Notes: generated by a model not told the origin, from the letters alone. A stretch of 64,000 nt of DNA from an uncultured Sphingomonadales bacterium (GCA_903839675.1 CAIMDB010000035.1:116975-180974); one strand, 5' to 3'. Positions 5,862-10,610 are shown, counted from the stretch's first letter. Made by a program: numbers and translations.

Positions 5862-8177
5862 TCAGTCGTCGCTCTTCAGGAACGCAGGCATGTGATCGGG
5901 GTTGCCCCCTTCATTGCCTTCCGAGCTTTCCCGACGTGGGCCACGATCACCGCCGCGTCCGCCACCAGGGCCACGCTTGCGATCACCGCCACCGCCGTCA
6001 CGACGGGGACCACGATCACCGCGGTCGCCACGATCAGCGCGGGGTTCGCGCGGTTCGCGGGCCGGACGGGTGTCTTCGAGTTCCGCACCGGTTTCCTGAT
6101 CGACGACGCGCATCGACAGGCGAACCTTGCCGCGCGGATCGATTTCGAGGACCTTGACCTTCACGGCCTGACCTTCGGAAACGACATCAGTCGGCTTTTC
6201 GACGCGTTCGTTGCGCATTTCGGACACGTGGACGAGACCGTCCTTGCCACCCATGAAGTTCACGAAAGCACCGAAATCAACGATGTTGACGACCTTGCCG
6301 TCATAGACCTTGCCGACTTCAGCTTCCTCAACGATGCCGAGGATCCACTTCTTGGCGGCTTCGATCTGATCGATGTCCGACGACGAGATCTTGATCACGC
6401 CTTCATCATCAATGTCGACCTTGGCGCCTGTGGTGGCGACAATTTCGCGGATGACCTTGCCGCCCGTACCGATGATGTCACGGATCTTCGACTTGTCGAT
6501 CGTGATCGTTTCGATGCGCGGAGCATGTGCCGAAAGTTCGCTGCGGACTTCGTTCAGTGCCTTCGCCATTTCGCCAAGGATGTGCGCGCGGCCTTCCTTC
6601 GCCTGGGCCAGAGCCTTTTCGAAGATTTCCTTCGTGATGCCGGCAATCTTGATGTCCATCTGCATCGTGGTGATGCCTTCGGACGTGCCGGCGACCTTGA
6701 AGTCCATGTCGCCCAGATGATCTTCATCACCCAGAATGTCGGACAGGATCGCGAAATCCTTGCCTTCGAGGATGAGACCCATGGCGATACCGGAAACGGG
6801 GCGCTTGATCGGCACACCGGCATCCATCATCGCAAGCGAGCCGCCGCAGACCGATGCCATCGACGACGAGCCGTTGGACTCGGTGATGTCGCTGGTCAGG
6901 CGGATCGTATAGGGGAACTCTTCCTTGGTCGGCAGCACAGGGTGAAGCGCGCGCCAGGCGAGCTTACCATGGCCGATTTCACGACGACCCGGCGCGCCGA
7001 AGCGGCCGACTTCACCGACCGAATAGGGCGGGAAGTTGTAGTGCAGCATGAAGTTTTCGTAGCGCAGGCCACCAAGACCATCGATCATCTGCTCTGCGTC
7101 CTTGGTGCCCAAGGTGCAGGTCGCGATCGTCTGGGTTTCCCCACGCGTGAACAAAGCAGAGCCATGCGCGCGCGGCAGGAAGTGCGTTTCACCGACGATG
7201 GGACGGATCTGCGTGGTGGTGCGGCCGTCGATGCGGGTGCCGTCCTTGAGGATGGCGCCACGGACGATTTCCGCTTCTAGCTTCTTCATCAGCTTCTGCG
7301 CGGCCATCTGGTCCTGCGGAGTGGCGTCAGCGAAAGCGTCCTTGGCCTTACCACGTGCTTCGTTGAGCGCGTTGGCACGGGCCGACTTGTCGGTCAGCTT
7401 GTAGGCCGCGGCAATGTCTTTGCCGATCAGCTTCTTGAGCTTGTCCTTGGCAGCACCGAGATCAGCCTGAGCTGGCATGTCCCAAGGTTCCTTGGCAGCC
7501 TGTTCAGCGAGCTTCACGATCGCCTTGATGACATCGCGGCAGCCATCATGCGCAAACAGAACGGCACCGAGCATGATTTCTTCCGAAAGCTCATTGGCTT
7601 CGGATTCCACCATCATCACGGCGTCGTAAGTGGCCGCGACGACGAGGTCGAGATCACCTTCGGCAACCTGTTCGTCGGTCGGGTTCAGGATGTATTCGCC
7701 GTTGAGGTACGTCACGCGTGCGCAGCCGATGGGGCCCATGAAAGGCACGCCCGACAGCGTCATCGCAGCCGACGCAGCAACCATCGCCAGAATGTCAGGC
7801 TCATTTTCGCCATCATAGGAAAGCACCTGCGCGATGCAGTTGATTTCGTTGTAGAAACCTTCTGGGAACAGCGGACGGATCGGACGGTCGATCAGGCGGG
7901 AAACCAGCGTTTCCTTTTCCGTCGCGCCACGTTCACGCTTGAAGAAGCCACCGGGAATACGGCCGGCAGCCGAATACTTTTCCTGATAGTTGACGGTGAG
8001 CGGGAAGAAGTCCTGCCCTTCCTTCACCTTCTTTGCGGCCGTAACGGCGCACAGGACAACAGTTTCGCCGAGGGTCGCGATGACCGCGCCGTCGGCTTGA
8101 CGGGCAACCTTGCCCGTTTCGAGTGTCAGGGTTTGTCCGCCCCACTCGATGGATACAGTTTTCGTGTTGAACATCAT
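5862..8177 (-). CDS. pnp: Polyribonucleotide nucleotidyltransferase (PNPase)
   Basis: [50 protein letters not shown] and S1 domains, Arg/Gly/Asp-rich tail. Confidence 0.98.
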
Positions 8178-8305
8178 TTTTCCTTCAAACCGGCGGCCCT
8201 ATGCCTGCCGGCTTCCTTCAAATGCGGACATCTGGTCCGCGCAACCGCACCTGTCACCGAATTGCGGCAGGCCGGAATAAACTCCGGAAAAGTCTTCCGG
8301 ATGTC

Positions 8306-8329
8306 AAAAGGGCGCCCGGAGGCGCCCTT
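8306..8329 (-). terminator. Terminator/hairpin after rpsO
   Basis: AAGGGCGCC-TCCG-GGCGCCCTT followed by TT on minus strand, immediately after the rpsO stop. Confidence 0.7.
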
Positions 8330-8333
8330 CCAA

Positions 8334-8603
8334 TTACTTGCGAAGGCCGAGCTTCGCGATGAGCGCCAGATAGCGCTCCTGATCAATCTTCTTCAGATAG
8401 CTGAGCAGCGAACGGCGGGTATTGACCAGCGTCAGCAGGCCGCGACGCGAGTGGTTATCCTTCGCGTGCGTCTTGAAGTGCTCGGTCAGGTTGATGATGC
8501 GCTCGGTCAGGATCGCGACCTGGACTTCGGGAGACCCCGTGTCGCCTTCGGTGCGGGCGTGTTCCTTGATGAGTTCGGCTTTGCGCTCAGTGGTAATCGT
8601 CAT
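8334..8603 (-). CDS. rpsO: 30S ribosomal protein S15
   Basis: [37 protein letters not shown]; 89 aa; between truB and pnp. Confidence 0.98.
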
Positions 8604-8630
8604 GTCTTCATTTCCTTCGACATCGGGCTT

Positions 8631-9614
8631 TTAGAGGTTGAAGCCGCGTTCCACCGTGACGGTGCCCTGTTGCACATCCACCAGCGCGACGGGCACTTCG
8701 GCCAGCGTTGCAAGATGAAGGCCGTCGGGTGCGGCAACCCCGGAAAGGACACGCCCCTGACGGAGCGCTGCGGCCTGACCGGCTTCGAGAGCAAGCGCCG
8801 GGATGTCGTCCAGCGCTGTTCTCAATGGCAATACAAGCTCGCCAAGGGTGCGGGCCTTAGCGTTTTCGTCCAGTTTGTCCAGCGAAATCGCGCCTTCGAG
8901 GCCAAACGGCCCTGCCTGCACACGGCGGAGCATGGTGACATGGCCGAACGTGCCGAGTGCCAAGGCAATATCGCGGGCGAGGCTGCGAATGTAGGTGCCT
9001 TTGGAGACATAGGCTGTGAGGGTGATCTCCTCAATAAGCCCCTCCCCTTCAGGGGAGGGGTTGGGGTGGGGCCTGTCCACGTTGACGCCTGCCCCGACGA
9101 CCCCTCCCCTAAAGGAGAGGGGCTCGTGAATTTGGAGAGAATGGATCACCACATCCCGCCCGGCGAGGACAACGTCTTCGCCCGCTCTGGCCAGATCATA
9201 GGCGCGTTTGCCGTCCACCTTCAGCGCCGAGAAGGCAGGCGGGATTTGCGTGATCGGCCCGGTGAACTCGGGCAGCTTCGCCTCGATTTCGGCCAATGTT
9301 GGCCTGACGTCGCTCTGCGCAATGACCTGACCCTCCAAATCGAGGCTATCGGTTTGCGCGCCAAAGGTGATGGTGAAGTCATAGACCTTCGACGCATCAA
9401 GCATCCGACCGGCGAGTTTGGTCGCCTCGCCCAGCGCAACAGGCAGGATGCCGGTCGCGAGCGGATCAAGTGTGCCGCCATGGCCAACCTTGACCTTGGC
9501 ATAGCCGCCTTCCCGCAGGGCACGCTTCACCCAGGAAACGACATTGGTGGACCCCATGCCGAGCGGCTTGTCGATCACGATCCAGCCATGGAGCGCGTCT
9601 GGCGCGTCAGCCAC
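8631..9614 (-). CDS. truB: tRNA pseudouridine(55) synthase TruB with a ~30-aa repeat-derived insertion
   Basis: KVGHGGTLDPLATG, SKGTYIRSLARD; GTG start overlaps tdk stop; insertion EPLSFRGG...PHPNPSPEGEGL before ITLTAYVSKG. Confidence 0.95.
   Translation of the reverse strand: MADAPDALHGWIVIDKPLGMGSTNVVSWVKRALREGGYAKVKVGHGGTLDPLATGILPVALGEATKLAGRMLDASKVYDFTITFGAQTDSLDLEGQVIAQSDVRPTLAEIEAKLPEFTGPITQIPPAFSALKVDGKRAYDLARAGEDVVLAGRDVVIHSLQIHEPLSFRGGVVGAGVNVDRPHPNPSPEGEGLIEEITLTAYVSKGTYIRSLARDIALALGTFGHVTMLRRVQAGPFGLEGAISLDKLDENAKARTLGELVLPLRTALDDIPALALEAGQAAALRQGRVLSGVAAPDGLHLATLAEVPVALVDVQQGTVTVERGFNL
9037..9124. repeat. 88-bp palindromic (MITE/REP-like) element inside truB coding sequence
   Basis: 25-nt terminal inverted repeats with 23/25 identity (agcccctccccttcaggggaggggt vs rc of acccctcccctaaaggagaggggct), each arm itself a CCCCTCCCC-N-GGGGAGGGG hairpin. 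Confidence 0.85.
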
Positions 9615-10185
9615 GGACCTTTTCCATGAAATGCTTGCGGCACAGCGCGACATAGCGGTCATTGCCGCCAATCTCTGTCTGCGCACCTTCCTTGACGGCG
9701 TTGCCCGCCGCATCGACGCGCAGGTTCATGGTCGCCTTGCGCCCGCATTCGCACACGGCCTTCAGTTCAACCAGCGTATCGGCAATGCCAAGCAGTGCCG
9801 CTGAACCCGGAAAGAGCTCCGCCTGAAAATCGGTGCGCAGACCATAGGCCACCACAGGAATGTTCGCCTCATCGGCCAACCGGGCGAGCTGGAGCACCTG
9901 CTCCCGCGTCAGGAACTGCGCTTCATCGAGCAACAGGCAGGCGATGGGGCGGGTTGCGTTCTCAGCGGTCACTTCGGCCCAAAGATCCGTATCGGGCGTG
10001 AATTTATGCGCGTCCGCCTGCAGACCGATACGGCTGGTGATGACGCCGGCATCATAGCGGTCGTCCAGCGCTGCGGTCCACAGCAGCGTTTCCATGCCGC
10101 GTTCGCGATAATTGAAATCGGCCTGCAGCAGCGTGGTCGATTTCCCGGCATTCATGCTGGCATAGTAGAAATAGAGCTTGGCCAT
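9607..10185 (-). CDS. tdk: Thymidine kinase (TK1 type)
   Basis: YYASMNAGKSTTLLQ, LLDEAQFL, YGLRTDF, zinc Cys motifs CECG and LCRKH. Confidence 0.95.
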   Translation of the reverse strand: MAKLYFYYASMNAGKSTTLLQADFNYRERGMETLLWTAALDDRYDAGVITSRIGLQADAHKFTPDTDLWAEVTAENATRPIACLLLDEAQFLTREQVLQLARLADEANIPVVAYGLRTDFQAELFPGSAALLGIADTLVELKAVCECGRKATMNLRVDAAGNAVKEGAQTEIGGNDRYVALCRKHFMEKVRG

Positions 10186-10574: not shown

Positions 10575-10586
10575 AACGGTCTCCGC

Positions 10587-10610
10587 TCCCTCCCCCCATA
10601 GGGAGAGGGA
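10587..10610. repeat. Short CCCTCYCCC/GGGAGAGGG hairpin, probable relic of the repeat family seen in truB
   Basis: tccctccccc-cata-gggagaggga fills most of the infB-rbfA spacer. Confidence 0.4.

Follow-up and report, generated by a model that had tools for sequence, protein, structure and literature searches.

The window, a 64,000-nucleotide stretch of DNA from an uncultured Sphingomonadales bacterium that was analysed as a whole, contains the gene order rbfA, a thymidine-kinase-like gene, truB, rpsO and pnp, of which rpsO, pnp, tdk and rbfA were named by reading their translations. The truB coding sequence occupies positions 8631-9614 on the minus strand, specifies 327 amino acids and a stop codon, and is identified by the Pfam domains TruB_N and TruB_C_2 as well as by matches to TruB structures in the PDB. 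The open frame found by the ORF scan spans 8631-9713 on the minus strand; the 327-residue product probably starts from a GTG codon (9612-9614) that overlaps the stop codon of the upstream thymidine-kinase-like gene. This overlap of the GTG start with the upstream TGA (window 9607-9614: GTGGCTGA) suggests that truB is translationally coupled to that gene. On the plus strand, a 693-residue open frame (7548-9629) runs antisense to pnp, rpsO and truB and traverses the element described below; the distribution of GC over its codon positions marks it as a shadow frame, and it is therefore not considered a gene. A degenerate hairpin of the same general type as the arms of that element is found just upstream of rbfA (10583-10608, CCGCTCCCTCCCCCCATAGGGAGAGG).

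The truB frame is occupied at 9037-9124 by a palindromic doublet of 88 bp, composed of arm, G-box, core and arm and belonging to the subtype referred to here as F1. Its terminal inverted repeats (9037-9061 and 9100-9124) are 25 nt long and complementary at 23 positions (92%); the arms begin with AAGCCCC and finish with GGGGCTT. Arm A, AGCCCCTCCCCTTCAGGGGAGGGGT, contains a perfect 10+10 hairpin at 9039-9060, in which 9039-9048 and 9051-9060 pair at all ten positions, and arm B, ACCCCTCCCCTAAAGGAGAGGGGCT, contains a hairpin at 9101-9122, in which 9101-9110 and 9113-9122 pair at nine of ten. The G-box adjoining the first hairpin (9062-9071, TGGGGTGGGG; with T9061, TTGGGGTGGGG) is a conserved module. 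It is followed by a core (9072-9099) that differs between copies and in which, in the truB copy, the expected C-box CCCCACCCCAA is degraded. No strand is assigned to the doublet or its parts. Read on the minus strand, the codons at 9036-9125 specify TruB residues 164-193 (EPLSFRGG...PEGEGL, in full EPLSFRGGVVGAGVNVDRPHPNPSPEGEGL), preceded by VVIHSLQIH (155-163) and followed by IEEITLTAY (194-202). The motifs GTLD (residues 47-50) and SKGTYIRS (204-211) are both intact. The original prediction, an 88-bp element with 25-nt arms matching at 23 positions, each arm itself a hairpin, lying in frame in truB at residues 164-193 without loss of the catalytic motifs, is thus borne out in coordinates, anatomy and translation.

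The sense RNA of the element folds at -71 kcal/mol, against -45.2 ± 3.5 kcal/mol for shuffled sequences (z = -7.4), and none of 200 shuffles folded as well. An intrinsic terminator inside truB was considered and rejected, the terminator search having given no call at the element. A comparison with Rfam returned only sub-threshold miRNA-type hairpin matches at this position. Neither the GTAG nor the CGTC end tag of REP sequences is present on the arms; GACG occurs only in the non-conserved core of the truB copy.

The source genome (G000), a MAG from lake water, comprises 38 contigs totalling 2.91 Mb and is 96% complete; two of its contigs (C2 and C6) start at repeats of this kind, which are assembly breaks. 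A repeat wrongly joined into truB during assembly or binning had accordingly to be considered, and an assembly artefact had been named at the outset as an observation that would refute the insertion. Two contigs of the probable source run (X1), one spanning 8800-9065 and the other, which includes the entire element, 9037-9400, cross their respective junctions without a single mismatch. Two independent runs (X3 and X4) carry related truB alleles with the element present, and the X3 allele differs by an in-frame 12-nt indel within it, 12 extra bases (GACCCCACCCCA) after 9098. The truB gene of the cultured strain Chakrabartia godavariana PRB40 contains the same element with identical boundaries. 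Since contigs span both junctions and independent runs share the insert, we regard an artefact as virtually ruled out. No RNA-seq run containing the truB element sequence was found.

The position of the insert in the protein was inferred from a structural model. PDB TruB structures align to residues 10-161 and 198-309 only. An AlphaFold2 (AF2) model built from 68 TruB sequences has a mean pLDDT of 88.5 and a pTM of 0.84, and superposes on the E. coli TruB-RNA complex 1K8W with a TM-score of 0.88 (normalised to target). In the model, strands 153-162 and 196-203 form a beta-hairpin, and the insert between them is a coil with pLDDT of 39-62. The confident overall model, its match to 1K8W and the coil conformation of the insert together place the segment at the tip of the beta-hairpin, with the fold predicted to be undisturbed. 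Loop placement by structure prediction, proposed earlier as a check, therefore gave a low-confidence, disordered surface loop. Most likely, the insert is translated as a Gly/Pro-rich disordered loop of 30 residues that TruB tolerates; this rests on the model and the open frame, and translation itself is inferred, as neither protein nor RNA data are available. Translational bypass of the insert was also considered and appears unlikely, because every in-gene copy is stop-free and the host reading frame is preserved. The frame has been open since before the split of C. godavariana and the source genome and indels inside the element stay in frame, as would be expected if the Gly/Pro-rich segment had equipped TruB for a new role, for instance as a binding surface or a localisation signal. 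However, an open frame is to be expected simply because truB is needed, the insert peptide is predicted to be disordered, and the loop peptides of different lineages are unrelated to one another and track the DNA palindrome with no protein motif in common. We consider an adaptive loop very improbable.

Sequences related to the truB arms are spread through the source genome, which contains 43 hairpin arms that follow the pattern CCCCTCCC-loop-GGGAGGGG. Two subtypes predominate: F1, the one found in truB (CCCCTCCCCT..AGGGGAGGGG), and a sister subtype (CCCCTCCCGC..GCGGGAGGGG). Each family hairpin is followed by the G-box. A census of perfect hairpins found only 64 in G000; it used stems of at least 11 bp, a threshold too strict for the 10-bp stems of the family. 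About ten doublets are present, each consisting of two inverted hairpin and G-box units around a short core, and the cores vary from copy to copy, a pattern of REPIN type rather than that of a classical MITE. Four of them lie in frame in real genes, namely truB, carA, a 973-residue Helicase_C_2 frame (a DinG-like helicase) and trmD, so that the arms, far from being confined to truB as a refutation of the original prediction would have had it, recur in three further in-frame doublets. The carA doublet lies between the CPSase and GATase domains, and the trmD doublet at the start of contig C2, where rplS follows trmD. Of the four F1 doublets in G000, three are intragenic. A TGA invariably interrupts one of the three frames of an F1 doublet in either orientation; the frame read in the in-gene copies is PLPFRGG...PNPSPEGEG.

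Several further observations concern the same repeats. Contig C2 begins inside an F1 doublet (C2:1-91) that reads in frame into trmD (…PHPNPSPEGEGL-QAAPILAMTPRGK…); the repeat evidently broke the assembly inside this gene. A composite module of C-box, small variable hairpin, main hairpin and G-box occurs in six copies directly after stop codons, a terminator-like position (C1:21244-21325, C2:3692-3773, C18:23076-23146, C26:327-400, C28:266913-266994 and C32:68318-68399). No tRNA genes were found beside these six singlet hairpins, which share a left flank. In a related genome (G011), sufC (L130:1464-1574) carries an apparent in-frame F1 doublet (…SVSFDG-[insert]-DLLALAP…), compared with the uninterrupted sequence on contig C25 of G000.

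Comparison with relatives indicates that the TruB loop has been occupied many times over. In an unbiased same-genus sample, 22 loop alleles could be read from 23 loci; loops exceed 13 residues in 14 of the 22, and the remaining alleles have connectors of 13 residues or fewer. Ten of the 14 long alleles (L001-L007, L009, L011 and L012) are strong palindromes of -49 to -103 kcal/mol, and these ten belong to at least six unrelated palindromic families. A solo hairpin is kept in some alleles (L008, L015, L017, L020/L022). The connector measures 8-13 residues in all seven outgroups and in many congeners. On a wider scale, 74 of 101 distinct Sphingomonadales TruBs have loops of 15 residues or more, forming 24 sequence clusters, four of them large; 44 loops of the 101 proteins fold at z <= -3 relative to control segments of the same gene, and at least ten unrelated palindromic families occupy the loop across the order. 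Two caveats apply: the 80-locus TruB set was obtained partly with peptide patterns that overlap the insert, and most of the relatives compared are MAGs.

On a TruB tree built with the loop masked, the loop states require a minimum of 54 changes; palindromic and short alleles have replaced one another at least 13 times, and the F1 cluster requires at least ten changes. F1 inserts do not share a single entry point: some lineages have it directly after the SL codons, others four to five codons further on, and F1-type inserts of distant genera enter truB at different codons. The same element with the same boundaries was found in G002, Chakrabartia sp. EUL_277 and C. godavariana PRB40, and the closest relatives without it (L015, L034, L036) have a different small solo hairpin instead. 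Ancestry of the segment in TruB, which would have refuted an insertion, is excluded by the short outgroup connectors, the other hairpins of near relatives and the differing entry codons. A small palindrome of the …GGACCGTC…GACGGTCC… type is nested in an F1 arm of the EUL_277 truB gene (L031:1501-2484), of trmD in G010 (L180/L190) and at L130:~475-560; this nested family is absent from G000.

Could a strong hairpin in the rbfA-truB-rpsO-pnp transcript itself be useful, as could those in trmD and carA, so that lineages recruit whichever palindrome is available, for slower translation, as a processing site or for mRNA protection? In E. coli, two of the three hotspot genes, trmD and truB, encode low-abundance enzymes and lie in operons with ribosomal protein genes; moreover, unrelated palindromes of -45 to -113 kcal/mol share the same position in many lineages. 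Yet no hairpin exists at that position in many congeners or in any outgroup, the same families occur in frame in unrelated genes and also between genes, and the site has neither a terminator-like call nor an Rfam family. The solo and decayed remnants, in addition, point to loss rather than maintenance of hairpins. Selection on RNA structure consequently seems a poor explanation, and we favour a selfish passenger in a tolerant loop.

TruB is not the only such site. The carA linker and the trmD loop have conserved empty alleles in several congeners, and in others they are occupied, within a window of a few codons, by F1, sister subtypes, F3 or unrelated palindromes. In G004, trmD (L177) carries a composite insert of about 66 residues in which two different palindromic families stand side by side. 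Only about 10^2 elements of such kind are present in G000, too few for random insertion to explain the occupancy; either the sites are targeted, or insertions are retained in a site-specific manner, or both. What causes the hotspots is a matter of inference. Nesting in F1 arms (L031, G010 and L130) is direct evidence that hairpins attract further insertions, but the conserved empty trmD alleles indicate that naive sites are also hit, and attraction of hairpins by hairpins is insufficient on its own.

The search for a mobilising enzyme led away from the transposases expected of REP sequences. The domain of RAYT and IS200-type transposases (Y1_Tnp, PF01797) has no match in the whole of G000, and six of 14 control genomes score; a RAYT/IS200-like transposase was rejected as the mobilising enzyme on this ground. 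In contrast, genes with a DUF559 domain (PF04480) number exactly two in G000, and both lie exactly between inverted hairpin and G-box units, in bracketed spans of 427 and 466 bp whose arms are of the sister subtype. Across 28 DUF559 genes examined, 27 from same-genus genomes and one from the outgroup G030, 21 are bracketed by arms; of the seven that are not, four are located at the ends of contigs. DUF559 is flanked by arms identical to that of truB in G002, G003, G007, G009 and G011, and the brackets of G004 and G013 form a second family, to which the truB insert of G013 also belongs. The arms of the inserts match those of DUF559 genes in their own genome in the case of G000 carA, G002 truB and carA, G003 truB, G007 carA and G013 truB. 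An exception to this matching is that G000 carries F1 doublets without any F1-subtype DUF559 unit. The eleven same-genus genomes with F1 hairpins, G000 among them, have 2-18 each; none were found in the three congeners without DUF559 or in any of the ten outgroups, and they are also lacking in two congeners that do have DUF559.

One DUF559 unit is linked to carA. In G000 a bracketed unit (C7:164890-165314) lies about 670 bp from carA, and the carA doublet (C7:166502-166582), about 1.2 kb from the unit, is of the same subtype. The adjacency recurs in G001, G002, G004, G008, G010, G011 and the outgroup G030. Seven congeners and an outgroup belonging to another family have a unit adjoining carA (<700 bp), which is therefore syntenic and old, as RAYTs are. 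The F1-type DUF559 unit of G002 (L131:1432-1877) is cleanly absent at the orthologous position in G000 (C28:99183-99186), where the flanks are contiguous. In G002 it has a 4-bp direct repeat, ATCA, on both sides, overlapping the stop codon of a convergent gene, although such a repeat could equally stem from a microhomology deletion. The flanks of 20 bracketed units revealed no consistent target-site duplication. The ATCA pair is the single clean filled/empty case, other pairs (L136, the C25 locus and the C1 locus) being too rearranged to read.

PDB 3HRL is a homologue of the DUF559 protein (E 4e-22). A Caulobacter DUF559 protein causes DNA damage in vivo, and the Vsr/DUF559 clade includes Vsr and a homing endonuclease (PMC3424549). 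That DUF559 mobilises the repeats is inferred; there is no direct evidence that it moves anything, and the syntenic copy linked to carA may have been domesticated and do no more than attract repeats. Alternatively, the DUF559 link could be incidental, and the element either a classical REP or REPIN moved by a RAYT or a MITE that descends from an IS encoding a DDE transposase. The doublet with a variable spacer resembles REPINs, the terminal inverted repeats and the one 4-bp flanking repeat are MITE-like, and CGTC-type REPs do occupy the same loop in other sphingomonads. Against this stand the lack of Y1_Tnp in G000 despite its detection in control genomes, the absence of a GTAG or CGTC tag from the arms, and the bracketing of DUF559 genes together with the co-variation of their subtypes, both of which are direct observations. 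Among the arms examined, furthermore, DUF559 is the only gene between arm pairs and no parent IS transposase sharing the element ends was seen, with the limitation that no dedicated scan for DDE transposases was made. We consider this alternative unlikely and retain DUF559 as the candidate partner.

Taken together, our data make it probable that the truB element is a gene-less doublet, trapped in a permissive and recurrently hit TruB loop, and a non-autonomous partner of DUF559 nuclease genes. It belongs to a G-rich palindromic family of Chakrabartia and other Sphingomonadaceae. Its in-frame entry, at the tip of the beta-hairpin in the catalytic domain of TruB, would date to the ancestor of a small clade within Chakrabartia; we interpret it as a selfish passenger rather than a functional domain. 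As a whole, the family is probably the non-autonomous partner of small DUF559 (Vsr-like PD-(D/E)xK) genes bracketed by the same arms, in an arrangement that parallels REPINs and their RAYT with another enzyme. The F1-subtype nuclease unit appears to have been lost from G000, and the truB copy is for that reason probably immobile now. Two causes most likely account for the hotspots: existing hairpins draw in further palindromes, as the nesting shows directly, and in essential genes only in-frame events survive, so that elements become trapped there.

A bolder extension holds that the TruB beta-hairpin tip, the TrmD loop and the CarA linker are fixed landing pads, colonised in frame repeatedly by unrelated families, and that the G-rich family and its DUF559 partner form a second, independently evolved system of REPtron type, built on a PD-(D/E)xK nuclease, with structure-directed or homing-like targeting. 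We put this forward only tentatively, somewhat short of an even chance. The CGTC-type REPs and long simple hairpins in the TruB loop are not linked to DUF559 here, and one enzyme therefore cannot explain the hotspot.

In-frame palindromic insertions, usually seen as a Rickettsia curiosity, are common here in free-living bacteria, and they are concentrated at a few loops of essential enzymes of tRNA and nucleotide metabolism. They amount to a natural experiment on the acquisition of new protein loops, on the sites that tolerate large insertions and on the persistence of selfish DNA in essential genes. The consistent pairing with DUF559 offers a testable role, that of partner enzyme to a repeat family, for a large family of unknown function, and suggests a mobility mechanism distinct from both RAYT/REPIN and IS/MITE systems. 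For annotation, such inserts inflate protein lengths and break MAG contigs within genes, as in trmD.

In truB and in this order, the bare phenomenon has been on record before: Di Nocera et al. (2013; PMC3733652, Additional file 3) list REPs in the TruB proteins of Sphingopyxis alaskensis (residues 169-177) and Erythrobacter litoralis (residues 164-190). That article also recalls the element RPE-1 in truB of Rickettsia conorii, and palindromic elements (RPEs) in frame in Rickettsia genes, which are well known, are attributed to Ogata et al. (2000, 2002) in PMC10969869 and PMC3733652. The original prediction had proposed an RPE-like phenomenon from a different repeat family in an alphaproteobacterium of free-living type. 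The in-frame copies, the non-ancestral state and the arms elsewhere in the genome support this reading; after the 2013 listing, the phenomenon itself is not new for the gene and the order. In the literature that could be searched, we found no description of the repeated use of one loop by many families, of the G-rich family, or of the pairing of DUF559 with repeats.

The RPEs resemble the present family in being palindromic repeats in frame in housekeeping genes at tolerated positions, where they add peptide, and the truB insert, at a surface position predicted by AF2 to be compatible with the host fold, conforms to this pattern. In contrast, the present family is GC-rich and resides in free-living Sphingomonadaceae, is a short-hairpin doublet with a non-conserved core linked to a DUF559 gene, and shares its TruB loop with many other families that have re-used it. 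Homology to RPE-1 to RPE-10 is unlikely, an inference from the GC-rich composition. The REPs listed in 2013 are found inside truB at the same loop and also in other genes for RNA- and DNA-handling proteins; however, they are CGTC-tagged and correspond to families F4 and F6 in our data, the truB element being of another family, and neither the recurrence at a single site nor a link to DUF559 was reported there.

Homing endonuclease elements, such as inteins and group I introns, likewise have a small nuclease gene, insert into conserved housekeeping genes, are either present or absent at a given site, and leave host function intact. They differ in that no splicing is involved here, the truB insert most likely staying in the protein, in that gene-less copies outnumber nuclease-bearing ones, and in that the insertions occupy variable loops rather than conserved motifs. 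With IS-derived MITEs the element shares its terminal inverted repeats, 25-nt arms alike at 23 positions; nevertheless, it looks less like a classical MITE than like a REPIN-type doublet whose partner gene is a DUF559 nuclease and not a transposase. A parallel in organisation is the REPIN/RAYT system, or REPtron (Bertels and Rainey, PMC3337134), with its inverted doublets of a short palindromic unit around a variable spacer and a small, low-copy, syntenic partner gene flanked by its own repeat subtype. The present system departs from it in lacking a RAYT in G000 and a GTAG or CGTC tag on the arms, in the high share of copies that lie in frame in genes, and in the partner itself, a Vsr-like PD-(D/E)xK nuclease of the DUF559 family in place of an HUH tyrosine transposase.
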